From positions 1-64,000 of the IMG/VR virus record IMGVR_UViG_3300018080_000123: a DNA stretch of 64,000 nucleotides; one strand, written 5' to 3'. The stretch is from a virus. Under the pieces are notes generated by a model, which was not told where the DNA came from, searched no databases, and saw nothing but the letters and a program-made list of their open reading frames with translations. Of this stretch, positions 27,354 through 64,000 are shown one piece after another. Position 1 is the first letter of the stretch; every line of letters starts with the position of its first letter. The position numbers and the translations under genes were made by a program.

Positions 27354-28126
27354 TATGGATTCTGTTCGTTAATAATCTTGTTAGGTGTTAGTAAGTTTTC
27401 GTCTAAATCTTTTCTCTCAATCAAAAAATCTCTCTTACAATTCCATTGCTGCGGTAGCTCGATCGGCTCTTTATGATCTCTTTTAGCTCCAAGCTGTGAG
27501 AACCTATTAATATGAACTGCATTTACTGCTCTAAACGTTACTGGATAATTGTAATGTAGTGTATAAATCTTTCCTTTGTCCGGCCTGCGAACTTCAATCC
27601 ATTGGATATTTCCATTTACGCCAACTTGAAAATCTGTATCCTGATAATATCTAACTCCATCTATGTCAATTAAAACATTAACAGAATGTGCGGGGTATTT
27701 CAAATTATCAATATCCCCATCTTGACGTTGAACTAGTTCAATCATTGGAGTCGTAAAGTCCATTAGTTCAATTTTAGCCCAGTAAAAAACTTCAACCCCT
27801 GTTGGAAAGGTCATTACAACTCCTTGTTCGTCCCAAGCTCCTTCTACATTAAACTGTTTCGTTAGATCCTGATTTCCAACAAATGCCCATGTTTCAACTG
27901 GTTCAAGGTCAATAAATCCGTCTTTTGTTTTACAAATCGAACAATTAATCTCATGCTCAGCGGAATCAATACTTTTCCTATTTGGACACAATACTGTGCG
28001 ATATACTCTAACCCGCACCCCTTGATCCTCAATCATCTGATTTACTTTAGCAGGATTAAGCGAAATAGTATTAAATTTAGGATCAAAGGATTTTGTTTTT
28101 GGTATTTTTTTATTAATTACGGCCAT
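27353..28126 (-). CDS. Head closure / neck protein
   Basis: CP..C..C motif, YTLHY and LPQQW motifs, synteny. Confidence 0.65.
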   Translation of the reverse strand: MAVINKKIPKTKSFDPKFNTISLNPAKVNQMIEDQGVRVRVYRTVLCPNRKSIDSAEHEINCSICKTKDGFIDLEPVETWAFVGNQDLTKQFNVEGAWDEQGVVMTFPTGVEVFYWAKIELMDFTTPMIELVQRQDGDIDNLKYPAHSVNVLIDIDGVRYYQDTDFQVGVNGNIQWIEVRRPDKGKIYTLHYNYPVTFRAVNAVHINRFSQLGAKRDHKEPIELPQQWNCKRDFLIERKDLDENLLTPNKIINEQNP

Positions 28127-29625
28127 TACGACCTTTCTTTCATCCCATCCATTTTGCCCGCTTTACCATCCCGACCCATTCCGCCACTTCCTTCGTTCTC
28201 AATCTTACTTTGCTCGGTTGAAGAACCAGCATCTGGAGAGGGAGCTGAAGAAGTTTTTTGCTGAATTTCGCTCACTCCACCATTCCCCGCTTCTCCATTC
28301 TCCGAACGCTCAGGGGTAATATCCGATTTCTTCTGAGTAGAGGGTTGAGGTTGCATCATAGCATTTAAACGTGAGGCAAATTGCTGTATTTCGTCGTTTC
28401 CACCTCTGGCATCACTCATATGATAGCTTCCATCAGGATCCATCTTTGGCATTTGAGACGCAAAAGAATCCTGCGTCCCCGGATTATTGCTCTGAATTTT
28501 TTCGTTCTCGCCGCTTCCATCTACACTCGGCTCATCTCCTGTATTAGGGCTGGCATTTAGTCCGGACTTCTCCATGTTCTCTTCACGCATCTGAATTCTA
28601 TATAGTCCGATATTCTCACTAGCCTTGTAAAAATCCTTTGACTCAACCAAAGCCCCGCTCTTATTCATTTCAGGCATTGTATCGTCAAGTTTATTGGCTT
28701 TTACTTTCAAGAGGGCAAAAGTCTTTGGAAACAAATCACCAAGGGTTTCTCTCCAAGAAGTATTGGTTTCTTTAAAAGACTTCTTCAGCTGCTTCATTCC
28801 CTCAATCCCGTATTTCCCTTTCAAAATTGAGAAGGCGCGACGACTGGCTTGCTCTTTCTTCTCAGACTTACAAAAATCTTTAATCATTCGCCTAAAAGCC
28901 TTTTTACCTTTCATAATCTTTTCATCGGTATCGAGAGACTCTGGGAGTCCATACTCTTCCTGATAATGCGTAAAGCTCTTTTTAACGGTTTTTTGGCCTT
29001 GTAATCTCTTCTGAAAAGCTTCTCGTCTATTTTCTGGCAGCTTGCTAATTAATTCACTAATATTAGAAGCGCTTTTGATCTCTTTAACGGTATGCCCGGA
29101 TTTCTTCAACTCTTCATAAAGATCTTTAACCAACGACTTCCTGCCCTTTTCGTTATTACGATTCATAATCGCTCCCTTACTTTTATGAACATTGATTGTA
29201 ATATTAATATCTCCCTTTGACGACGGCACCACAATATTCTCCGCCTCAACGGGTTGCGGAGCTTCGGTGTCTTCGCCCCTCTCCTCTAGCTCTGGGAGAG
29301 AAGCAATCGATGCAGGCTCAATATACTCTTTAACCTCGAGCATTTTAACAATCTCGGGAAGAGTTTTTTTATCAAACTTCAGCGGAATTTCGCCTGTATC
29401 GCTCACTTCACTTTTAACAAAACTTCCGCTATATACTCCGTCATCGTCTTTTCTTAAACTTAAAACCCCTGAGGGTAGATCGACATCTTTAAAATCGTTT
29501 ACCTTCATTCCTCTTGTCTTCATCCACATATAGAATTTGTACTTCTCTGGGATTGACATTGAAGACAGAGTATGAGAACTGATATCGGTAACCGAAGTTG
29601 ATGTTTCATGTGGAACAAATGGCAT
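28126..29625 (-). CDS. Putative internal head protein with many hydrophobic-X-K-S sites
   Basis: 499 aa low-complexity protein containing FVKS, VHKS, LKKS, VKKS, FCKS, MNKS, FYKA, MEKS. Confidence 0.5.
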   Translation of the reverse strand: MPFVPHETSTSVTDISSHTLSSMSIPEKYKFYMWMKTRGMKVNDFKDVDLPSGVLSLRKDDDGVYSGSFVKSEVSDTGEIPLKFDKKTLPEIVKMLEVKEYIEPASIASLPELEERGEDTEAPQPVEAENIVVPSSKGDINITINVHKSKGAIMNRNNEKGRKSLVKDLYEELKKSGHTVKEIKSASNISELISKLPENRREAFQKRLQGQKTVKKSFTHYQEEYGLPESLDTDEKIMKGKKAFRRMIKDFCKSEKKEQASRRAFSILKGKYGIEGMKQLKKSFKETNTSWRETLGDLFPKTFALLKVKANKLDDTMPEMNKSGALVESKDFYKASENIGLYRIQMREENMEKSGLNASPNTGDEPSVDGSGENEKIQSNNPGTQDSFASQMPKMDPDGSYHMSDARGGNDEIQQFASRLNAMMQPQPSTQKKSDITPERSENGEAGNGGVSEIQQKTSSAPSPDAGSSTEQSKIENEGSGGMGRDGKAGKMDGMKERS

Positions 29626-55314: not shown

Positions 55315-56781
55315 TTATGAACGCCCAATGTTCTTCACGATACAATTCTTGCGAGGTGTATACATATGAAGAGCACCGTACATCAGCTGCATCCATCGAT
55401 AGTTCGTACCAAGCAATGCAAGGTCGATCTTCATCATGGTAAGAAGCTGTTTGAACGCAAAGTTGTCCTCGTTTACCTGCATGAGGTAAGCTTTGGACAA
55501 ACCAGGCATACTAGCGTTGAAGTCAATATCCAAATCACGGAAGTCACCGTCACCAGCGTGGAAGTTTGCAGGCTTCACGCGGCCGATAAACTCATGATTG
55601 CTCGACCCAGCCTTGGGTGAGCGGAAGATATTGAAATACTGAACACCACTCGGATTCGAACCCGGGAGAATATCCAGCACGACTTTGTCGCCAGCGGCCA
55701 CGGTAACTGCCTTAGCAGCGCTTGCCAACGTTTCACCGTCGGAATACACTGCTGAACACTTATACTCGTAAGCGCCAACGTCAACAGCCGCAAACTGAGA
55801 ACTACCAGAAGCCGGGCTGTTGTCGCCTGAGTTCGCATCCTGAAGGGTAGGGGCCGATTCAGCTGAAACGGCCGCAGCCAACGGAATACGACGAGGACGC
55901 TGGAACACGCCAGACTTAAGGTTGAAAGTACCAGAACCGGAAACGAACTGCTTCACAACGTAACCAGCTTTTCCTTCCATACCGAGCGTATTGATGCGCT
56001 CCTTGGCATAGAAAGCACGACTGAAGTCACTGTGGGCTTTCGTATCCATATACATATCCGTGCACATACCGAAATTGTTGGCCTGAACGAGGGCTGCCTC
56101 TTCGAGGATTTCCTCATCCAAAACCTCTCCACTCTGGAGATCATTTCGTTTGTCGAGGATGATGGTATCTGCGCCACTCAGCACATTGTAACCATCAAAG
56201 GCCTGAGCTTTAAACTCAGCCTGGCTCTCTTTGTCGCCAATCTGCTTATCAATACCGTCGAATTCGAGGCCATTGATTGAACTGTCGGCTGAAAAGAGGG
56301 CTCGCTCAAGCTGGGCCAGAATCCAAAGAGCACCATTCTTGATCTCTCTCTGAACGATCGGACCATGAGCTTGCCTAACCAGCATAACGTCGTGGTTAAT
56401 CTGTTTCTGAACGCCCATGTACTTGATCTGCACCACGTTTCGGTCATAACCGGAATCCGCAGTTGCTGGAGCCGAGGCCATTGTGAAAAATGGAGGAATC
56501 TGGGCGCCATAACTGTTGTTCGTATTCGCTTGTTCAACCGTGTTGTATGCAGGAGTCTTCGGAATATCATTCCAAAGAAGCAGGTGCTTTTGTTCGTGGG
56601 TCACCACTCGGAGGGTCTTATCCAAAGATTCGACCTGGAGAGCGGGAGCACCTGTAAAATCACCCGGAAGAGTATCCGAATAATTTTGGCTTGCAAAGCT
56701 GAGGGCTTTGCTGATTTCTTCAAGAAGCTGGGGAGCATCAGCTCCAAAACCAGTCAATGAAGAAGGATTGCTATTTTGCAT
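55315..56781 (-). CDS. Major capsid protein (SPO1/Twort-type HK97 fold)
   Basis: ALQVESLDKTL, LWNDIPKTPAYNTV and YGALHMYTPRK..KNIG motifs; 488 aa; probable processing at ISK|A. Confidence 0.93.
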   Translation of the reverse strand: MQNSNPSSLTGFGADAPQLLEEISKALSFASQNYSDTLPGDFTGAPALQVESLDKTLRVVTHEQKHLLLWNDIPKTPAYNTVEQANTNNSYGAQIPPFFTMASAPATADSGYDRNVVQIKYMGVQKQINHDVMLVRQAHGPIVQREIKNGALWILAQLERALFSADSSINGLEFDGIDKQIGDKESQAEFKAQAFDGYNVLSGADTIILDKRNDLQSGEVLDEEILEEAALVQANNFGMCTDMYMDTKAHSDFSRAFYAKERINTLGMEGKAGYVVKQFVSGSGTFNLKSGVFQRPRRIPLAAAVSAESAPTLQDANSGDNSPASGSSQFAAVDVGAYEYKCSAVYSDGETLASAAKAVTVAAGDKVVLDILPGSNPSGVQYFNIFRSPKAGSSNHEFIGRVKPANFHAGDGDFRDLDIDFNASMPGLSKAYLMQVNEDNFAFKQLLTMMKIDLALLGTNYRWMQLMYGALHMYTPRKNCIVKNIGRS

Positions 56782-56796
56782 TGATTAATACTCCCT

Positions 56797-57426
56797 TTAC
56801 TTTAACTCTTTAATTGCCTGTTCAACAACTTCTCGATCCTTGGCATCAAGAATCTGAGACGTTGCCTCATAACCACTCAGTGAGGCGCCGGAAATCTTTC
56901 CAGCTTTCCAAAGCTCTTCCATTGTATCAAGAACCTGGGACTTAGAAATTTTCTTTGGTCCCTCATTCTCAGAAGCCGTATGAAATGACTTTTTAACTTC
57001 GTTCACCTTGTCAACCGACTGACGACCGGTCTTAGGAGCGCGAAGGGCTTTAGTCAACTCATTAACAGCTTCTCGGAGATCTTTGATTTCCTCTTGGACG
57101 ACGCTCTGAATCGACTTCTTGAATTCCTCTTCTTTCTTAGCCGACTCTTCTTTTGCCTTCTGCTCTTTTGCAGCTTTCAGCAACTGAAGATCTTCAGCTG
57201 TAATCTCGATGGATTCAGGAGTCTCTTCATCTTCTGAGCCTTCTTCTGACTTCTCAACCTGCTCATCGCCAGTCTCGTCATCAGTAGAATCGGCTTCAGC
57301 CACCTCTTCGTCCTTGAGGTACTCATCGATAAGATCATCGATGGACTTCTCAAGCTCTTCGTCAGTAACAGTTTCGCTGTCCTGCTCTTCAAGCTTGGTC
57401 TTCTCAAGATCAGACATTTTCACCAT
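56797..57426 (-). CDS. Capsid scaffolding protein
   Basis: Acidic coiled-coil protein directly before the MCP, with multiple KS/KA sites. Confidence 0.75.
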   Translation of the reverse strand: MVKMSDLEKTKLEEQDSETVTDEELEKSIDDLIDEYLKDEEVAEADSTDDETGDEQVEKSEEGSEDEETPESIEITAEDLQLLKAAKEQKAKEESAKKEEEFKKSIQSVVQEEIKDLREAVNELTKALRAPKTGRQSVDKVNEVKKSFHTASENEGPKKISKSQVLDTMEELWKAGKISGASLSGYEATSQILDAKDREVVEQAIKELK

Positions 57427-57433
57427 TCTCCTT

Positions 57434-58267
57434 TTATTGTTTGTTATCGGACTCAGATGTTGTATCTGAATCCCCCTGTAGAAGTTTCTTTTGCCACTTT
57501 TCCGTTGTAATCTCGATTATCGTTTGATAATCGGTTTCTGGAAACCTTTCTTTAACCTCCTTTAATATTGCTTTAAAGATTTGCTTACGTTTCTGTCTAG
57601 ATATGTCATCATTTGCACTAAGTAAATCACAGCCTTTAATTTTGTTTTTGCCTTTACCGGGCCCCATCCCACGCCCACTAGAGCCCTGAACTGAACCTTT
57701 TCCATCTCTCTGGAATACTAACTTCTTCTTCCCTTCTTTAGTTGTCTCTACCTCGAACTGTCTATTCTTATCTTTCGGATCTTTGACAACAATAGCACCC
57801 TTCTTAATCCCTTCCTTTTTAGCCTTATCTTCCATTGTCTTGAGACGAGTATAATAATCCGAAATTTCTGCTAAGTGATCTTTTGCAATTTCTTTAGCCT
57901 TGGTTTTATCCTTTGTATGCTCCATCTCAACTTTAATACCCATAGCTAACTGCTTTGGGTCAAAATCACTATCGGGCCTTCCAGCTGCCTTTCCTCCAGG
58001 GATTTTCTCAGCCTTGGCTAGATTTGATAAAAGCTTTTCGTCTTCTTTAATTACCTGCTCAACGTCCGACTTCTCTACATTTTCGCCCTTATGTTTCTGT
58101 TTGCGCTTTTTCTTCTTCTTTCTAGCAAGGCTCTCTGTTGTTGTTACCACAGCCCCACTCATGTCTCCTGGCAACGTATTGGCATAACTAGGACCGCCCG
58201 CACCAATAGTGAGCGCTTTTTTAAATACTCTAAGGAGCTGTTCTAGTTTTGTCTTTTCAATTTTCAT
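57434..58267 (-). CDS. Modular head protein with MCP-N-arm-like segment and DUF5661-like domain
   Basis: TLPGDMSGA..ESL; QLAMGIKVEMEHT..AKEIAKDHLAE..DYYTRL. Confidence 0.7.
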   Translation of the reverse strand: MKIEKTKLEQLLRVFKKALTIGAGGPSYANTLPGDMSGAVVTTTESLARKKKKKRKQKHKGENVEKSDVEQVIKEDEKLLSNLAKAEKIPGGKAAGRPDSDFDPKQLAMGIKVEMEHTKDKTKAKEIAKDHLAEISDYYTRLKTMEDKAKKEGIKKGAIVVKDPKDKNRQFEVETTKEGKKKLVFQRDGKGSVQGSSGRGMGPGKGKNKIKGCDLLSANDDISRQKRKQIFKAILKEVKERFPETDYQTIIEITTEKWQKKLLQGDSDTTSESDNKQ

Positions 58268-59484
58268 TAGTATTTAGATTTCATTTGCTCTTTTTCTGTT
58301 TTTTTTCCAATCTTAGCTACAAAAGCCTGATTGCGTTTCTCTTTTCGCTCTTTCATACGTTCCCCGAACTTCTTATCGGCCTCTTCTCCTTCTTTCCTTT
58401 TCGCTGTGACCTTACCTACGGCTGCTTGATTGCGTTTTTCTTTACGGGCTTTCATACGTTCGGCGAACTTCTTATCCCAATCTTCGCTCTCTTTTCGCTT
58501 TGAAGTAATCTTACCTAAAGCAGCCTGATTGCGAGACTCTTTTCCCGACTCATAAATTGGCTTACCGCTCTTTGTGCGACCAACAATTCTGCCACCTTTT
58601 GAGCCCTCTCCGCCAGCCTTCTTCAGTTTTGACTGTTTACGGGCTCTAAGCTCAGTCAACACCGCCCGCTTCGTGGTATCATCGAGCCCTCGAAGCACTT
58701 CATTTACTTTTGCTCCCGGGCTTATGATCTTATCAACAAGTTTACTAACGTCGCCATCTGTCTTCTTCATGCTCTTGCGATTTGTTGTTCCTCCAATCGA
58801 TGCCCGACATACTGCATAAGGATTAACGCCTGGGCTCTCCTTTTTAACCTCTTTTACACAACGCTTTTCTTTTGGCGTACAACCCTTATTGAGATACTTT
58901 CTTGCCACATTAAGGATCTTCTCAAGCTTATCTTTATCAATCTCAACATATTCATCTTCGCCATCGTCAGTTGATTTACGCATACATTTCTTTGCGTCTT
59001 TTTGACCTTCTTTCAAGAGTTTTTCTTTTCCATCTTTTCCTTCGCCCATAAAGCTCTTTTTATCTTTTGAAAGCTTTTTGTGCTCTTTCTCAATAGCCGA
59101 AACTCTATCACTTAATGAACGCATTTCCTTATGCTCTTTTTTCTCCTCGCCCTTCGACTCTCCTCCGTCTTTTTTCAATGGCATAAGCTTTGTCTCGCTT
59201 TCTTTTGTCGATGGCTTCTTAGGCTTCTGTTTCTTCGGCTCTAGCTCATCTGATCCGGCTTCTTCGGCAGCTTTCTTATGCCCAACCTGATCAGTAGCTC
59301 GGGAGTCGTGGGGGTGGTGTTCATAGCGAGGCTTTGAATTAATCTCATCAATGTTCTTCGGACGATCTCCTGGAATCATCGCTTTCTTCTCGTCCTCGTG
59401 CCAATAAACATAATTACCGGGTGTACCGGTTCGCTTGGCATATTTCAACTTAGACTGTGATTTATCTTTTTCTTTATCTGTCAT
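58267..59484 (-). CDS. Basic modular head protein
   Basis: KYAKRTGTPGNYVYW, NPYAVC and GEGSKGGRIVGRTKSGKPIY modules; 33-aa tandem repeats. Confidence 0.65.
   Translation of the reverse strand: MTDKEKDKSQSKLKYAKRTGTPGNYVYWHEDEKKAMIPGDRPKNIDEINSKPRYEHHPHDSRATDQVGHKKAAEEAGSDELEPKKQKPKKPSTKESETKLMPLKKDGGESKGEEKKEHKEMRSLSDRVSAIEKEHKKLSKDKKSFMGEGKDGKEKLLKEGQKDAKKCMRKSTDDGEDEYVEIDKDKLEKILNVARKYLNKGCTPKEKRCVKEVKKESPGVNPYAVCRASIGGTTNRKSMKKTDGDVSKLVDKIISPGAKVNEVLRGLDDTTKRAVLTELRARKQSKLKKAGGEGSKGGRIVGRTKSGKPIYESGKESRNQAALGKITSKRKESEDWDKKFAERMKARKEKRNQAAVGKVTAKRKEGEEADKKFGERMKERKEKRNQAFVAKIGKKTEKEQMKSKY
58322..58540 (-). repeat. 99-bp (33-aa) tandem repeat, about 2.3 copies
   Basis: RNQAALGKITSKRKESEDWDKKFAERMKARKEK / RNQAAVGKVTAKRKEGEEADKKFGERMKERKEK / RNQAF. 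Confidence 0.8.
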
Positions 59485-59501
59485 TGTTTAATCCTCTACG
59501 G

Positions 59502-61457
59502 CTATTTCTTTCTGGCTTTTTCAATTTCCGCCTTTTTTAAGCTATGCTTAGCGTCCCAACGCCTAAGAAATTCCTTCTCACTGATGTTATACTTTGTTGG
59601 GTTCTTTTTCTTTGCCTCTTGAAACATCTTAAGAGCAACGCCACGATTACTAGCTATTCTCCCAGGCCCGCGATCGGCAAATGCCTGTCTTTGGATAGCT
59701 CTTGCTGACGTCCCTGGACCGGGCTTACGGCCGCTTCCAGGGCCGCCCTTTTCAAAAAGCTTGGCTCGCTGTTTCTTTTTCTCCTGTTCTTTCTTCCAGC
59801 TTTCTCCGGCTCTATATTCAGAAATCTTTTGTTTAGATTCTATTGCTCTATCAACCTTCTTTCCTTGATCTCGCGCTTGATTAAAATGACTGGTAGCTTT
59901 AACATTTTTTCCTTCTGCGACTGCACTGTGGAAATCGGCTAGATGCTCGTGATATTTTGCTTTCTCTTTAGCAATCCCGCTACCAGAAACAGGAGCTCCT
60001 CCCTCAGTGCGACTTGGCTTAGATCTCTTCTCAGCTGCTTCTGCTTCCTTTCTGTGAGCGGCAGCAGCGTCTTTATGATCCTCTTTCGACCAATCATGAT
60101 GATAGCCTACTGTATACCCGCTGTGACCTTTACCGTGTGAGGAATAAATAGGTTTGCCCGACTTCGTTCTTCCTATTACTTTTCCGCCTCTGGAGCCTTC
60201 TCCTGCTGCTTTATCGAGAGCTTCCGAAATCGCTTCAACGATTACGCTTTTAATGAAATGCTTCCTATCTTCTTTACGCGTAACAATTTTGGGCTTGAAA
60301 TCTTCGCCAGGCTGGGCTTGATGATATTCAACGCGAGAAACATGTTCTTGATATGGAATGTGTAAGCTATTAACTGCTTCTTTAAAACGATTTAAGTGCC
60401 CGGGAGTATGAAATGAGTCTCCATGCTCACTAATTATCTTTCCATGCTCATCTAAAAGTTTTTGAATTTTCTTGTACGTCTCGTTAGCATGGCTTTCGAC
60501 AGCATCTCTACCTGGAGCATTATGTTCGCCCGCTCCTCGCTTTTTTCTTGGAGCCTTATCTTTTGCTCCCATGCGACGGGCCTTTTCGAGGACACTTAAA
60601 AGGGTCATTAAATTACTTTTTTTGACTCTTACTGCGCCCGGTGAAGGGGCGGAGGAGGCGACATCCCCTATCACCGGTTGACTAGCCACTGAAGGACTAG
60701 CCAGGGAAGAATCTTCATCTGTATATCCTAAAAGCTCGCCATCCTCCGACTTAGCAAGGGTTGGATTATCGTCGTAAGTAGAAAGCTCTACTGCTTCACT
60801 GTCCTTTTTCTTTTTCTTCTTTTCGCCATCCTGAATTTTATCTGCCTGACTTGCGCCTTCGGCCTGAATCTTTTCTACCTCACCCTCTCCCACACTTTCA
60901 AGAATACAGGCCTTATCAATTTCTTCAATAGTATCTGAGCACTCATTAACTTCAAACCTCTCAACAGATAAAGATTTGGCAATCTCTGCATAAGTGCTTG
61001 TATTGACTGGATCAAGTGTTAAGGCGACTTTCTCCACTCTCGCCCTTGCAATAACGCTCTTATCAATATCGTCTCGTTTAACAATCTTTCCCTCAATTGA
61101 CATTTGCACTCTGTTCTTATCTGCTTTCTTCAACGAGCGCATAATGTTATAGAAGGCCTGAGCGCGGGGTTGGTGCTTAAAAAGATAGCCCTCAACATAC
61201 AACCCGTTCATTGTGTTTTGGGCATAATCGATCTTACCGAGAACATTTTCTGGGCCCTTTTGATGGTCGTTATTAAAAAGTCCTTTTCCGTTTTTCAACG
61301 GACCAATATCGAGCCCCGACTGCTGAACCACTTCACCTTGTAAATCCTTATCACCTGTGGAAGCAATTCCTTTAATGCGCCATTCGTCTTCGTTCTCGCC
61401 TTTGGCGAGCTCGACGGGCACAAAAAATTTGAAGGTGTCTTGGTCGCTTTTCCCCAT
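59502..61457 (-). CDS. Prohead protease with long modular C-terminal extension
   Basis: IKGIAST..DLQGE, NNDH, MSIEG and VALT..PVN motifs in the first ~165 aa; 651 aa in total. Confidence 0.88.
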   Translation of the reverse strand: MGKSDQDTFKFFVPVELAKGENEDEWRIKGIASTGDKDLQGEVVQQSGLDIGPLKNGKGLFNNDHQKGPENVLGKIDYAQNTMNGLYVEGYLFKHQPRAQAFYNIMRSLKKADKNRVQMSIEGKIVKRDDIDKSVIARARVEKVALTLDPVNTSTYAEIAKSLSVERFEVNECSDTIEEIDKACILESVGEGEVEKIQAEGASQADKIQDGEKKKKKKDSEAVELSTYDDNPTLAKSEDGELLGYTDEDSSLASPSVASQPVIGDVASSAPSPGAVRVKKSNLMTLLSVLEKARRMGAKDKAPRKKRGAGEHNAPGRDAVESHANETYKKIQKLLDEHGKIISEHGDSFHTPGHLNRFKEAVNSLHIPYQEHVSRVEYHQAQPGEDFKPKIVTRKEDRKHFIKSVIVEAISEALDKAAGEGSRGGKVIGRTKSGKPIYSSHGKGHSGYTVGYHHDWSKEDHKDAAAAHRKEAEAAEKRSKPSRTEGGAPVSGSGIAKEKAKYHEHLADFHSAVAEGKNVKATSHFNQARDQGKKVDRAIESKQKISEYRAGESWKKEQEKKKQRAKLFEKGGPGSGRKPGPGTSARAIQRQAFADRGPGRIASNRGVALKMFQEAKKKNPTKYNISEKEFLRRWDAKHSLKKAEIEKARKK

Positions 61458-61503
61458 CGTTTCTCCAGATTTATGAACGGATTTGTAGAGTGGTCAATAT
61501 TTA

Positions 61504-61513
61504 ATTATAGTAT
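61504..61513 (-). promoter_or_regulatory. Putative late-promoter motif ATACTATAAT upstream of the head operon
   Basis: Repeated intergenic 10-mer. Confidence 0.55.
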
Positions 61514-61547
61514 AACATGGGGTATTTTTTAAATTAAATTGTGCAAA

Positions 61548-61880
61548 TTAGTTATCACCAAACTCGCCTAGCTCTTTCATAATCTTGACAATCTGTGTCC
61601 GGAAGTTCTTCTTTGCCTCTTCCTCACGCAAAGCAATATTGTTGATCGATGTTGCCGTCAACTTGGCCACCTCTTCCAATGTATGTTCTCTTCCATTGTC
61701 CAACATATATTTGAAGAAGCAATAGTTGGCCTTTCGATCATCCACATACCAAACACACTCATTCTTGGCACAAGGTAGGACATTAAACCGGCCTGATTTC
61801 ATCTTCTCAGCCTTCCGCCTTCCCATGCTACAAACCCGAGTAGGATACTTATCCAGTTTTCGAGGACATCTCTGATCCAT
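61548..61880 (-). CDS. Cys-rich protein with sigma70 region-4-like HTH
   Basis: HTLEEVAKL..SINNIALREEEAKKNFR; five Cys upstream. Confidence 0.6.
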   Translation of the reverse strand: MDQRCPRKLDKYPTRVCSMGRRKAEKMKSGRFNVLPCAKNECVWYVDDRKANYCFFKYMLDNGREHTLEEVAKLTATSINNIALREEEAKKNFRTQIVKIMKELGEFGDN

Positions 61881-61965
61881 TTGACAAAACCTATAATTTG
61901 TCGGGAATTTATCTGGCCTATTTATGACACATTAATAGACCACTAATGGCCACTAATATCAAGTA

Positions 61966-62238
61966 TTAATGACGGAGCCACCAAAATCTTTGCCCAGCTT
62001 CTTCATTTTGCATAACCCAGCGATCAAGAACATTTTCTCCATCACACTTCTCGCATACGAGAAAATTAATACAGCTTCTAGATACCGCATAAACCCAGCG
62101 CCAAACATCTCCTACCTCAAACCTATGACCACACATATAACATCGAAAACCATCTCCACTCTCTCTCGGTCCCCATTTTGCTTGAACATCTTTTTCTGTT
62201 GCAACTCTAGGCTTCTGATCTACAAAGCTAGTAGTCAT
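61966..62238 (-). CDS. Small Zn-finger protein
   Basis: CYMC..CEKC. Confidence 0.55.
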   Translation of the reverse strand: MTTSFVDQKPRVATEKDVQAKWGPRESGDGFRCYMCGHRFEVGDVWRWVYAVSRSCINFLVCEKCDGENVLDRWVMQNEEAGQRFWWLRH

Positions 62239-62255
62239 TTTTATCTCCTGTATAG

Positions 62256-62522
62256 CTACTCTGCAGCTGACTCTTCTTTTTTCTTCTTCTGTATAACGGG
62301 GTTTTCTTCGTTATAAATAGGCAAACAAGTTCTACACATCCAATATCGTTTATCTCTCGTTTTCCTCGTCTTTCTAGGTTTCCCACATCCATCACATTTG
62401 ATATTGGCTATTGCACGTCTGCGATAGAATCTAATAAGCTCAAATGCTCCTTCTGCAGCTATTCCTGCAAAGAAGATTATCATAAACCATATGGTGTACT
62501 CTATCATAGATTCGGCCGGCAT
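62256..62522 (-). CDS. Membrane-anchored Zn-ribbon protein
   Basis: N-terminal TM helix; CDGC..CRTC. Confidence 0.5.
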   Translation of the reverse strand: MPAESMIEYTIWFMIIFFAGIAAEGAFELIRFYRRRAIANIKCDGCGKPRKTRKTRDKRYWMCRTCLPIYNEENPVIQKKKKEESAAE

Positions 62523-62524
62523 TT

Positions 62525-62797
62525 TTATTTCTTGTAATCCTCTAAGATATGGCCTTTCGTTGCCAGGTAATCTGCAAAACCTGGATCTATTTGTCCAAGC
62601 ACGTATACACTCCCTGACTCAGTTCGGGCTGTCAACCGCTCGGGGTCAAACTCTGTCACATTCGATGTAATGATTCGCTTTCCATTCTCAAAATTTGGAT
62701 TCCCATGAACCTCCCCTGCAAGAGCCCTTCGCCACTGCTCGGGGGCCTTGTACGGATCACCAATTGACACTACAAATGACCAATTCTCTAACTTCAT
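62525..62797 (-). CDS. Conserved phage hypothetical protein
   Basis: LENWS..PYKAPE..GEVHG.P.F.NG..I.TS pattern. Confidence 0.6.
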   Translation of the reverse strand: MKLENWSFVVSIGDPYKAPEQWRRALAGEVHGNPNFENGKRIITSNVTEFDPERLTARTESGSVYVLGQIDPGFADYLATKGHILEDYKK

Positions 62798-63235
62798 CCT
62801 TTTCCCCTCCTAATACTTCTCCGGTAACGTGTCAAGCTCTGGGCTACAGCCACAGCACTGCGTATCCCCACTTAAGGCAAGATCTGTCTTTTCTGACAAA
62901 TTCCTGAGAAATTCAATCAACCCTTTCTTATTAAATTCCAGATCAGCGAGCTCTCCATTATTATAATGAGCTTTAACTAGCCCCTGTTCAATGGCCCAGT
63001 CCCAAATGTTCTGCCCTTCATCTTTTTTATACTTGTTTGTCATCGTCTTTCTCCTTATCATCAAAAGACTCTTGATACGAAATATGAGCAACATGAACGC
63101 CTTCACTATAGAACGTTTTAACGCTTCCTATCACAGCTCCTTTTATCTCAAGAATTTCTACAATTGCCCGCTCCAGCCTATCTTCAAATCCAATATCGTG
63201 CTCATCTCTTACAACTTTAATTCTAAAAACGCGTG

Positions 63236-63907
63236 TCATTTTTCCACTCTCCTCTTATCGATCTTCTCTAAAATCTTACTTTTATCCTCGCAATATTTGT
63301 CCCAGTGTTTGTCACATAGACCTATCTTTCCAAGCTCCGGTACCATTACCCAACATTCCAGCTGCATCTTACAATACTTAACACTACACCTCAGATCTTT
63401 ATCTTCATAATCTTGAAAAAAGCCTTTTTGAGCAGTGCCAGCAAATTCTGCTTCAATGTTTTGCCTATACAATTCTGCCGCTCCCTCCAGCGCATATCCT
63501 CTTTCATATTTGTACTTTCCCTCGTATGCTCTCTCCATCAACTGTTCCCCAACCTTGTCAACATATCTCTCCGCTCTTAATCCAATTTGTTTTGCTACAT
63601 CATATGTCAAAGATCTGTTATGATACCGAGCAAACTTTCTATCTAACTTACACTGCCAGTGTCCAAGCTCATGGAACAGGTGATTTAAAAATCGCTCTAC
63701 ATTCGTAAAACGACCCTTAGAGTCTCTCATGCTAATTTTGATTTCTTTTGTCTCCAGATTGATCATAGCACCGCCGCATGTCGTCCAATCAAAGATCAAT
63801 CCCAGCCCGCTTCTCAAAGCGATATCGATTCCTTTAGCTACATCTGGATGTTTCAAAAATCTATTCACAATCCACCTTTGTGAATCCGCCCGTAAAACTA
63901 ATCGCAT
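63236..63907 (-). CDS. HEXXH zinc metallopeptidase-like protein
   Basis: LFHELGH followed by a downstream E (AERY). Confidence 0.6.
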   Translation of the reverse strand: MRLVLRADSQRWIVNRFLKHPDVAKGIDIALRSGLGLIFDWTTCGGAMINLETKEIKISMRDSKGRFTNVERFLNHLFHELGHWQCKLDRKFARYHNRSLTYDVAKQIGLRAERYVDKVGEQLMERAYEGKYKYERGYALEGAAELYRQNIEAEFAGTAQKGFFQDYEDKDLRCSVKYCKMQLECWVMVPELGKIGLCDKHWDKYCEDKSKILEKIDKRRVEK

Positions 63908-64000
63908 ATCCGAGGCGGCGATCTCTTTCTTTCCTTTTCCAGTTAACTCTCCTCACCTCTCCATATACTCTAAACGTGCTAGGTCCATACCAATTAGGAT

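Follow-up and report, generated by a model that had tools for sequence, protein, structure and literature searches.

Candidate head polyproteins in an uncultured phage, with modules bounded by putative prohead protease sites

Three adjacent proteins encoded among the head-assembly genes of an uncultured phage (genome 114 kb) appear to be polyproteins that the prohead protease would divide into small, mostly basic modules, carried as internal cargo of the head. From sequence comparison we assign this reading as a whole a probability of roughly 0.6. The modules start at the Lys-(Ser/Ala/Gly) bond which such proteases cut in the capsid protein, and are therefore probably freed inside the head as cargo.

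Results

Organisation of the head-assembly block

We examined five minus-strand ORFs in the window, the 64,000-nucleotide stretch of phage DNA that was analysed:

61457..59502 (minus): protease with C-terminal extension, 651 aa
59484..58267 (minus): ORF405, between the protease and ORF277
58267..57434 (minus): ORF277, adjoining ORF405
57426..56797 (minus): scaffold-like protein of 209 aa, acidic (pI 4.4), eight motif sites
56781..55315 (minus): capsid protein, the last of the five ORFs

The order (protease, ORF405, ORF277, scaffold, capsid protein) thus places the protease gene beside the scaffold and major capsid genes, and a matching protease/scaffold/capsid neighbourhood was found in at least 20 loci. 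An HExxH protein is encoded at 63236..63907, 2 kb upstream of the head block.

By its matches, the capsid protein is an HK97-fold major capsid protein of the Herelleviridae type: it matches phrog_752 (E 1e-65) and PDB entries 9vel (E 7.5e-53) and 5lii (E 5e-18), is approximately 31% identical to SPO1-group capsid proteins, and is homologous to SPO1 gp6.1 and the phi812 capsid protein over its full length. Similarity likewise indicates that the protease is an HK97-type (Peptidase S78/U35) prohead protease of the Herelleviridae branch. The phrog_1028 head maturation protease family is matched by residues 4–162 (E 3e-36), prohead proteases of Herelleviridae are 29–41% identical, and the 744 phage records matched in a tblastn search with the protease are nearly all Herelleviridae prohead proteases. 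A Pfam search with the protease gave no match at E ≤ 0.1; its homologue in Listeria phage LMTA-57 is annotated Peptidase_U35, and on visual alignment its E-H and S-I-E-G correspond to the candidate catalytic His and Ser of the window's protease, which lie in D-H (approximately aa 64–65) and in S-I-E-G (invariant S120). Judged by these comparisons, both proteins are distantly related to the type found in Herelleviridae (SPO1/Twort/A511).

A lysine motif shared by capsid protein, scaffold and protease

The motif [LIVMF]-x-K-[SAG] ends the protease domain (I-A-K161↓S), recurs through the scaffold and marks the capsid propeptide, as had been proposed in the initial annotation, and all nine sites quoted there lie where it had placed them (protease K161↓S, K292↓A, K416↓A and K570↓G; ORF405 K200↓G and K289↓A; ORF277 K17↓A and K85↓A; capsid K25↓A; the arrow marks the bond). 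A conserved L-A-K19↓G also lies near the protease N-terminus. Cutting at K25 would divide the capsid protein as follows:

56707..56781 (minus): capsid propeptide (aa 1–25), ending I-S-K25↓A
55315..56706 (minus): predicted mature major capsid protein (aa 26–488) with stop codon, carrying the phrog_752 and PDB matches

The form h-x-K↓A stands at the aligned capsid position in relatives with an intact N-terminus and in SPO1 gp6.1, while the capsid chain deposited as PDB 9row (phi812-type) starts at Ser25, right after V-V-K. This chain start is our basis for a Lys-Ser site in staphylococcal phi812-type phages, and it agrees with the Lys-Ser maturation site of Twort-type phages named in the initial annotation. 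The scaffold of the close relative L001 keeps all eight of the eight motif sites. The capsid comparisons support the motif as a conserved capsid-protein maturation site of the lineage.

In composition shuffles the motif was in excess in the protease (14 sites vs 4.3 expected, p < 0.0005) and the scaffold (8 vs 1.2, p < 0.0005), with no significant excess by count in ORF277 (5 vs 2.3), ORF405 (3 vs 2.9) or the capsid protein (2 vs 1.9), and no enrichment in the remaining 153 proteins of the genome (132 vs 122). With local-composition shuffles only three of 158 proteins stood out: besides the protease and the scaffold, this was a protein of 499 aa encoded at 28126..29625. The strong support for the motif comes from sequences of relatives, not from site counts in the window. 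Seventeen protease homologues without the GSRGG domain (described below) contain 211 sites where 39 are expected, and 184 proteins with that domain contain 1,311 where local shuffles predict 437; in the latter set reversed, shifted, Arg-for-Lys and Glu-for-Lys control motifs gave ratios of only 0.9–1.2. The site logo has acidic residues at P5 and P4. The motif and the Herelleviridae-branch protease family co-occur in at least 24 independent loci, and the catalytic domain ends at a motif site in all protease homologues. NUDIX, Zeta toxin, LPD1, DUF6321, DUF6496, DUF5661 and MuF domains are flanked by motif sites, although a few sites fall within NUDIX and LPD1 domains. We consider it quite likely that the motif sites are real protease sites.

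Modular architecture of the protease extension, ORF405 and ORF277

Cutting at the motif would divide the three chains into the following parts:

60975..61457 (minus): prohead protease catalytic domain (aa 1–161), phrog_1028 match, ending I-A-K161↓S
60582..60974 (minus): acidic linker (aa 162–292), four motif sites, pieces of pI 4.1–5.7, conserved with L001 to aa 274
60249..60581 (minus): basic module A (aa 293–403, net charge +7), missing from L001
60210..60248 (minus): 13-residue acidic amphipathic spacer between K403↓S and L-D-K416↓A
59748..60209 (minus): fragment aa 417–570 (net charge +13) with the GSRGG-His domain at its start
59532..59747 (minus): basic G-G-P-G-S-G module (aa 571–642, pI 11.4), lying between F-E-K570↓G and L-K-K642↓A
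59502..59531 (minus): C-terminal protease tail (aa 643–651 with stop codon), one further site
58975..59484 (minus): ORF405 N-terminal part (aa 1–170, basic), conserved with L001 ORF411
58885..58974 (minus): ORF405 acidic spacer (aa 171–200) between M-R-K170↓S and L-N-K200↓G
58618..58884 (minus): ORF405 Cys-containing basic module (aa 201–289), with a G-G-P-G-S-G module in its place in L001
58270..58617 (minus): ORF405 C-terminal fragment (aa 290–405, net charge +19), a second GSRGG core and then R-N-Q-A-A repeats
58217..58267 (minus): ORF277 leader of 17 residues, ending F-K-K17↓A
58070..58216 (minus): ORF277 copy of the capsid N-terminal arm and Lys-rich tract (aa 18–66), similar to the capsid protein
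58013..58069 (minus): ORF277 acidic spacer (aa 67–85) between V-E-K66↓S and L-A-K85↓A
57800..58012 (minus): ORF277 DUF5661 module (aa 86–156), A-E-K-I-P-G-G immediately after the site
57437..57799 (minus): ORF277 C-terminal part (aa 157–277), a basic fragment and an acidic tail

By computed charge, the site-bounded fragments are basic modules (pI 9.1–11.4) alternating with short acidic spacers (pI 4.1–4.6), three to five modules in each of the three proteins. The last 12 residues of the acidic linker are also an amphipathic spacer, ending L-E-K292↓A. DUF5661 is the sole named family among the modules (Pfam PF18905, ORF277 aa 105–148, E 6.6e-13, 49.2 bits vs a cut-off of 27) and begins identically after L-T-K↓A in another protein, P0085. 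Neither basic module A nor the Cys module of ORF405 has a Pfam match, and no enzymatic effector domain was found in the window's own chains (277–651 aa). A stretch near the ORF405 N-terminus, K-Y-A-K-R-T-G-T-P-G-N-Y-V-Y-W, recurs after h-x-K↓A sites in two related loci (L003, L031).

The ORF277 leader resembles the capsid propeptide with its I-S-K25↓A end. ORF277 shares 28% identity over 118 aa with the L001 capsid protein (E 4e-5), and in L024, ORF281 shares 45% over 42 aa with the capsid protein (E 1e-6). In six relatives (L014, L031, L029, L009, L022 and LMTA-57) the mimic of the capsid N-arm is found on the protease.

An undescribed domain behind the sites

A repeated 22-residue piece forms the core of a folded domain of approximately 75 residues, GSRGG-His, in which G-S-R-G-G-K-V-I-G-R-T-K-S-G-K-P-I-Y is followed by His-rich helices (AlphaFold2 on the L024 copy, pLDDT 89.8). 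The modules had been described as peptides in the initial annotation; they are indeed small and mobile, but with at least one of them a well-folded domain that term understates them. The domain is undescribed and widespread, with 2,057 clusters in metagenomes and no occurrence in Pfam, PHROGs, 50,697 GenBank phages or the cultured Herelleviridae searched; all relatives that carry these modules are uncultured. The protease and ORF405 copies are identical at 20 of 31 residues, with only 5 of those 20 codons identical.

A site lies 0–8 residues upstream of 88% of 280 domain copies, compared to a base rate of 12%, and of 83% of 209 copies in a second set, although the upstream motif could in part simply reflect conservation at the N-terminal border of the domain; the spacer between site and domain varies from 2 to 8 residues. 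Across 283 proteins, site density per 100 aa is 8.8 just before the domain, approximately 0.05 inside it (in part because the sequence is conserved) and 1.35 overall. Sub-lineages carry different residues at the junction position before the domain. Phages whose head genes belong to other sets have different leaders on the domain and encode it next to portal, MuF or protease genes. Together with the flanking of named domains, this piling of sites extends to hundreds of homologues the proposal that the motif marks module boundaries.

Module exchange with a close relative

It had been suggested that module gain and loss in related phages be compared with the sites, and in L001 the two coincide: at three of the four internal breakpoints, blocks of DNA homology with the window stop no more than one codon away from a site, although BLAST block ends may be drawn to conserved junctions. 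The homologous G-G-P-G-S-G block runs from aa 569 to aa 643 of the protease, that is from site to site, and the ORF405 block stops at aa 201, next to K200↓G. Modules have been swapped or moved between genes. The window's chains both sit beside virion genes and show rapid domain shuffling, as seen in L001 and in related loci.

Discussion

Proposed mechanism

We propose that the serine protease, of HK97 type, recognises [D/E][D/E]-[L/I/V]-x-K↓[S/A/G] and cuts behind its Lys, which would remove the 25-residue capsid propeptide and chop up the acidic scaffold, as conservation and the phi812 deposit suggest. The same bond recurs, as is seen in the sequence, through the 490-residue protease extension and the next two proteins, where successive basic modules are predicted to be separated by a short acidic amphipathic spacer with a site on either side. 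Fusion to the protease would bring the chains into the procapsid, or, in the case of ORF277, its copy of the capsid propeptide end and N-arm would do so. There the protease would free the modules (GSRGG-His, DUF5661, the G-G-P-G-S-G module and the Cys module), while acidic spacers and scaffold pieces would exit. The basic modules probably remain with the DNA, like T4 internal proteins, and may enter the host with it; the conserved junctions would double as points of module exchange between phages. The steps are not equally secure. Judging from the sequences, the proteins are probably loaded into proheads; we see an even chance that mature heads retain the modules, and ejection of these and action in the host is a tentative suggestion that we would on balance doubt. 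The roles suggested in the initial annotation (DNA condensation, host takeover or anti-defence) are likewise hypothetical.

Alternative explanations

It is possible, but in our view unlikely, that the protease extension, ORF405 and ORF277 act solely in assembly as scaffold or core, all fragments, the basic modules too, being degraded and expelled before DNA packaging or in its course, with nothing delivered. Acidic, scaffold-like protease extensions are found in the majority of related phages; they lie directly before the capsid gene and hold 14–23 sites, as a protease-scaffold fusion would, and in those phages the sites may serve degradation and removal only; propeptides are also generally expected to leave the head (PMC10052503). 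However, an acidic scaffold with eight sites is encoded here by a gene of its own. Its modules are basic and the GSRGG-His domain is predicted to be stably folded and is free of sites, so the products appear meant to survive. Elsewhere this domain is moreover joined to NUDIX and Zeta-toxin enzymes, for which no part in assembly is apparent, and free module swapping between close relatives would be unusual for core assembly parts.

Alternatively, h-x-K-[S/A/G] with the Gly-rich residues beyond it might be a helix end and hinge in multidomain proteins of the polyvalent kind that stay uncut, packaged or not. The motif does lie at domain boundaries, where linkers are expected, G-G-x-G-S after the Lys resembles a flexible hinge, and some polyvalent proteins are transferred unprocessed (PMC5512222). 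A hinge would not explain the strict requirement for Lys, at which neither Arg nor Glu gives enrichment, nor the identical motif at the capsid maturation site, the eight sites in a scaffold with no domains to link, the different residues at the equivalent position in sub-lineages, or the restriction of enrichment within the genome to head proteins. We regard this explanation as improbable.

It is more improbable still that the cutting is done by a protease of the host or by another one of the phage, for which the HExxH protein upstream would be a candidate, since the motif also occurs at the capsid propeptide site and propeptide removal is the defining job of this lineage's prohead protease; the co-occurrence of motif and protease family, and the site at the end of every homologous protease domain, also point to the prohead protease. 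Chance matches to a loose four-residue motif in helical proteins rich in Lys, Ala and Glu, conceivable from the chance-level counts in ORF405 and the capsid protein, are rejected by the local shuffles, the reversed and shifted controls, the site-density profile around the domain and the breakpoint coincidence.

Comparison with known systems

Processing of head polyproteins into internal cargo, the reading that we favour, has published precedents in the T4 internal proteins, the ejection proteins of phiKZ and SPN3US, and polyvalent proteins. In T4, an N-terminal address, the capsid-targeting sequence, loads the basic proteins IPI-III and Alt into the prohead core, and the prohead protease gp21 removes this address and frees internal proteins at a short motif also used on capsid and scaffold proteins, after which they stay with the DNA and are injected (PMC9026906; PMC5512222). 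Basic head cargo and a release motif common to capsid and scaffold proteins would be shared features, predicted here from sequence. The T4 protease, however, is of another family and cuts after Glu (L/I-x-E), whereas cutting here would be after Lys by an HK97/Herelleviridae-type enzyme; T4 has a separate gene and one site per internal protein, whereas here each chain holds several modules and the protease is itself part of one of them. Its mode of action may resemble that of T4, but the system would not belong to the T4 type, as its protease is not gp21-type and its sites have Lys at P1, where Glu brings no enrichment.

In phiKZ, 201phi2-1 and SPN3US, the prohead protease cuts the propeptides of many head proteins (ejection and inner-body proteins) at a consensus motif, some of them multiply, and the mature parts are ejected (PMC10052503; PMC5694885). 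These giant phages differ in their motif (A/S/G-x-E, T4-like protease), in substrates that lose long N-terminal propeptides and are not divided into rows of modules, and in genome size, at least 240 kb as against the 114 kb of this phage.

Polyvalent proteins (Iyer, Burroughs, Anand, de Souza and Aravind 2017) combine 2 to 15 distinct, unrelated domains per polypeptide, shuffled from a shared conflict-related pool, lie near virion genes and are predicted to be packaged and injected; their processing was proposed to be mainly via built-in zincin metallopeptidases, with assemblin-like protease domains rare and always C-terminal (PMC5512222). The fusions of GSRGG-His elsewhere to LPD1, NUDIX, Zeta toxin and MuF are of this kind. 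The window's chains differ in being short (277–651 aa), made of small non-enzymatic modules, with an N-terminal protease, no metallopeptidase in the chain and junctions bearing the prohead-protease motif. The Dar proteins of phage P1 (DarA, DarB, Hdf, DdrA/B, Ulx) are head-internal anti-restriction proteins, some proteolytically processed (PMC5512222; PMC12810830; PMC9024508). Incorporation during assembly and processing of some would be common to both, as predicted here from sequence; the Dar proteins are separate large proteins of known function, with no repeated junction motif and no protease fusion.

The Herelleviridae themselves (SPO1, Twort/phi812/K, A511) share the protease and capsid families, the protease-scaffold-capsid order and the h-x-K↓S/A site, and the LMTA-57 protease tail copies the capsid N-arm. 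The cultured members differ in having a protease of approximately 260 aa, one protein between protease and capsid gene and no GSRGG-His domain, and identity to them is only approximately 30%. If the proposed reading is true, this phage would represent a lysine-specific counterpart, based on an HK97-type protease, of the internal proteins of T4 and the ejection proteins of phiKZ, with an architecture like that of polyvalent proteins.

The head gene block and its families

The window covers the initial 64 kb of one 113.6-kb contig, on which nearly every gene is encoded by the minus strand. Five consecutive genes form the head block. In the list below, sites are matches to [LIVMF]-x-K-[SAG] (h-x-K↓[SAG], the arrow marking the bond after Lys).

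Genes of the head block, with motif sites found and, in brackets, the number expected from composition shuffles
61457..59502, minus strand: protease protein, 651 aa, residues 1-161 being the prohead protease (phrog_1028, E 3e-36); 14 sites (4.3)
59484..58267, minus strand: ORF405, second of the five genes; 3 sites (2.9)
58267..57434, minus strand: ORF277, with DUF5661 as its sole named family (E 6.6e-13); 5 sites (2.3)
57426..56797, minus strand: acidic scaffold-like protein, 209 aa, fourth of the five genes; 8 sites (1.2)
56781..55315, minus strand: HK97-fold capsid protein, 488 aa (phrog_752, E 1e-65); 2 sites (1.9)
Remaining 153 proteins of the genome: 132 sites (122)

The protease domain shares 29-41% identity with the prohead proteases of Herelleviridae, and the capsid protein is ~31% identical to those of the SPO1 group, with PDB matches to 9vel (SPO1 gp6.1) and 5lii (phi812). 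ORF405, ORF277 and the scaffold had no match in PHROGs, the 6-kb block had no blastn match among GenBank phages, and separate Pfam searches with the individual modules, taken to E 5, returned sub-threshold noise only. Since cultured Herelleviridae have a protease of ~260 aa and one protein encoded between it and the capsid gene, the long protease extension and two extra ORFs are additions. The 2.5 kb upstream of the protease (61458-64000) are filled by small ORFs and an HExxH protein, with no portal gene directly upstream, in which respect Herelleviridae differ; portal-sized candidate ORFs lie at ~73-77 kb of the contig, outside the window.

The Lys motif as a probable protease site

All nine example sites quoted in the initial annotation lie where it placed them. 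The excess of sites over composition shuffles is significant for the protease and scaffold only (p<0.0005), and against local-composition shuffles three of 158 proteins stand out, namely the same two and a third, of 499 aa, at 28126..29625. This third protein (minus strand) has 11 h-x-K-[SAG] sites compared to 3.2 expected, clustered at aa 148-353, and sits in the neck/tail-proximal region, upstream of the tail sheath. Its neighbours on either side are a phrog_772 protein and a phrog_1004 virion protein, and it too may be cut by the head protease. Cutting in silico at every site yields a regular alternation of basic pieces (70-170 residues, pI 9.1-11.4) and acidic amphipathic spacers (12-30 residues, pI 4.1-4.6); pieces of the scaffold are mostly acidic.

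In all relatives recovered with an intact N-terminus, the capsid protein carries [L/I]-x-K↓A-[L/M] at one shared position near its N-terminus, where SPO1 gp6.1 has L-N-K↓A. For the staphylococcal phi812-type capsid, PDB 5lii is a 463-residue precursor and 9row a 439-residue chain starting at Ser25, right after V-V-K, in agreement with the Lys-Ser maturation site that the initial annotation attributed to Twort-type phages. A Lys-Ser maturation site is reportedly used in the A511 capsid likewise; our literature search found nothing direct on cleavage in Herelleviridae. The motif had also been said to end the protease domain, and in every homologue, including that of Listeria phage LMTA-57, the catalytic domain does end at such a site. 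In an independent sample of 17 protease homologues lacking the repeated module, the motif occurs 211 times (39 expected) and its reverse 61 times.

The GSRGG-His domain

The protease extension and ORF405 have in common a 22-residue piece, which forms the core of a larger domain of ~75 residues. This domain, here termed GSRGG-His, comprises a beta-hairpin followed by His-rich helices. AlphaFold2 modelled it from a 92-sequence alignment with a mean pLDDT of 89.8 and pTM of 0.77, the Gly-rich first nine residues being less confident. Foldseek (best E 3) and VIA-align (best Z 6.4) matched the model to generic helical hairpins only, which is no proof of a new fold, and the ESM Atlas gave no usable match. 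Profile search of 1.84 billion representative proteins recovered 2,057 clusters at E<=1e-3 (1,226 at E<=1e-10), many proteins containing 2-8 copies, yet the domain is absent from Pfam, PHROGs and, by tblastn, 50,697 GenBank phage records. GSRGG-His is a sizeable, unannotated new domain family, with a fold that is confidently predicted.

Just two of 185,579 species genomes contain the domain, one of them in a 108.9-kb contig of a Flavobacteriales MAG. This contig (L106, CAYRMV010000001.1, 108,852 bp, binned as uncultured Flavobacteriales) fits in size the 105-119-kb module-bearing IMG/VR contigs; it probably comes from a phage and was binned together with the host, a hint that some members of the phage group infect Bacteroidota. 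Fusion partners of the domain include NUDIX, Zeta toxin, LPD1, DUF6321, DUF6496, DUF5661 and MuF, the same domain make-up as that of polyvalent proteins (Iyer et al. 2017, PMC5512222). No mention of DUF5661, DUF6496 or DUF6321 was found in the literature.

The two GSRGG cores of the window share 20 of 31 residues and only five of the 20 corresponding codons. Because codons differ at identical residues, the protein sequence, including the K-A-G junction, is kept by selection, and a recent duplication as the origin of the two cores was rejected.

Sites at module borders

Among 184 domain-bearing proteins we counted 1,311 motif sites, 3.0-fold the 437 +/- 19 predicted by shuffling within blocks of 30 residues, with a site logo of [D/E][D/E]-[L/I/V]-[E/Q/K]-K↓[S/A/G]. 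Controls (reversed motif, shifted registers, Arg or Glu replacing Lys, Asp/Glu after Lys) gave ratios of 0.9-1.2. A composition artefact was considered, as the reversed motif was at first 2.0-fold in excess; it was rejected, this excess consisting of G-K-I-I and G-K-P-I in the domain core and falling to 1.2-fold after masking.

The sites are concentrated at domain borders. A site lies 0-8 residues upstream of 88% of 280 domain copies (base rate 12%), with a spacer of 2 to 8 residues, and in a second set of 109 proteins 83% of 209 copies have an upstream site. Density per 100 residues is 8.8 in the ten positions before the domain, compared to 1.35 overall, and 4.1 in the next ten positions further upstream, where a second site closes the short spacer; it is 0.00-0.13 across domain positions 0-69 and, from position 80 onwards, is back at about 1.1-1.5. 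Around partner domains, sites lie from a few to ~30 residues outside the Pfam envelopes, with few inside, and DUF5661 begins A-[E/D]-K-I-P-G-G directly after the Lys both in the window and in an unrelated NUDIX fusion.

The initial annotation had proposed that gain and loss of modules in related phages should coincide with the sites, and comparison with the closest relative, IMG/VR contig 3300018080_000170 (capsid protein 93% identical), bears this out for most breakpoints. Two stretches of DNA, one covering the protease gene up to codon 274 and the other reaching from where ORF405 ends through the capsid gene, are collinear between the two phages at 82-84%, and what lies between these stretches is a mosaic. 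The block containing the G-G-P-G-S-G module spans codons 569-643, with sites K570 and K642 at its two ends; homology in ORF405 stops at codon 201, beside site K200; the GSRGG core of the window protease matches one in ORF411 of the relative; and the R-N-Q-A-A repeats and GSRGG module occur in reversed order. Three of the four internal breakpoints fall within one codon of a site and the fourth is six codons off; the probability of three such coincidences is ~1e-4 by a rough estimate, and conserved junctions may draw alignment ends towards them.

Possible route of entry into the head

The first 17 residues of ORF277 form a leader that ends F-K-K↓A, and next comes a copy of the N-terminal arm of the mature capsid protein; in the close relative, the ORF277 counterpart and the capsid arm are 45% identical over 42 residues (E 1e-6). 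In other relatives a capsid-arm copy lies on the protease, just past the site ending the catalytic domain, and reproduces the 30-50 residues with which the mature capsid protein begins, as well as the preceding Lys site. We found no description of it in the literature.

Protease tails with a capsid-arm copy, by contig
L014:994-1827, 72% identity
L031:16452-17273, 67% identity
L029:944-4240
L009:13914-14870
L022:12232-13092
L002:4977-5771, Listeria phage LMTA-57

We infer that the arm copy is a docking signal of this lineage; in cultured Herelleviridae, the protease-tail copy could be what loads the protease into proheads. The protease extension would enter the head along with the protease. For ORF405 we saw no entry signal beyond gene position and an N-terminal K-R-T-G-x-P-G-N-Y-x-Y motif. 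This motif, K-R-T-G-[T/S]-P-G-N-Y-x-Y-x-[Y/H] within aa 1-35 (59380-59484, minus strand), recurs in three other loci (L003:9467-11899, L031:13636-16137, L064:13274-14371), twice right after an h-x-K↓A site, and bears a loose likeness to the hairpin of the GSRGG core.

Other leaders in other lineages

Domain copies with no upstream Lys motif fall into leader groups. One has x-V/T-D-[A/V/M/Q]↓G-E. A second, M-x-N-D-[A/Q]↓G, occurs in contig L060, where the domain forms three stand-alone genes interspersed with those for the small terminase, portal and MuF proteins. A third, [A/G/S]-x-E↓[V/I/T]-G-P-R-G-G, is preceded by a short amphipathic N-terminal leader resembling the T4 capsid-targeting sequence; this sub-family (G-P-R-G-G-x-I-I-G-K-T) comprises metagenome proteins P0143, P0196, P0204, P0210 and P0233 (alignment A4) and L098:432-1055, and the sole contig recovered for it, L098 (5.5 kb), carries DNA ligase and helicase genes and no head genes.

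Four high-GC phage contigs have ~ten adjacent small genes, one of them with a GSRGG-His domain, which encode a common N-terminal leader, P-Q-Q-I-K-Y-Q-G-Q-x-Y-V-x-A (I-K-Y-x-G-x-x-Y-V-x-A), and unrelated C-terminal parts.

Runs of genes with the common leader, by contig
L036:4415-11456
L104:1003-8044
L102:1632-11864
L105:4194-16250

These genes adjoin a portal gene and a head protease of another family, phrog_18299, which in L036 has them on both sides, and look like a cargo gene family with a single address tag. The diversity of leaders fits cargo that carries lineage-specific addresses.

Interpretation

Most likely, on this sequence evidence, the prohead protease cuts the chains at h-x-K↓[S/A/G] and so would free folded basic modules inside the capsid. 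The proposed release resembles that of the internal proteins of T4 and the ejection proteins of phiKZ and SPN3US; what differs here is the Lys code and the HK97/Herelleviridae-type protease, for which we found no published description of such cargo polyproteins. The chains are also built like polyvalent proteins, among which assemblin-like proteases have been recorded only as rare C-terminal domains, with autoprocessing by zincins proposed (Iyer et al., PMC5512222). The main rival accepts the same fragments and holds that all of them are assembly parts, expelled from the head.

We also offer a wider and tentative reading, with a probability of roughly 0.3, namely that a large uncultured group of ~105-120 kb phages and relatives in other lineages possess a general cassette system, in which any small domain placed behind a lineage-specific junction, at once prohead-protease site and recombination joint, becomes head cargo. 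GSRGG-His would be the commonest cargo, and the modules would be injected with the DNA as first-wave host-directed or anti-defence proteins. The domain would stand behind K↓[SAG] where the protease is Herelleviridae-like, and behind x-V-D-x↓G, [A/G/S]-x-E↓ or the I-K-Y-x-G-x-x-Y-V-x-A hairpin where the head genes differ.

If the chains are indeed released as cargo, protease-released head cargo, as in T4-like and phiKZ-like phages, would extend to an HK97/Herelleviridae-type protease with a Lys-specific code, and polyvalent proteins would gain a processing rule readable from sequence, making cargo and the borders of unknown domains predictable in metagenomic phages. The capsid-arm copy, as a docking signal for protease and cargo in the Herelleviridae lineage, is testable in phage K, A511 or SPO1, and could serve to load foreign proteins into capsids. 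GSRGG-His itself may be the internal protein that occurs most commonly across the whole phage group.
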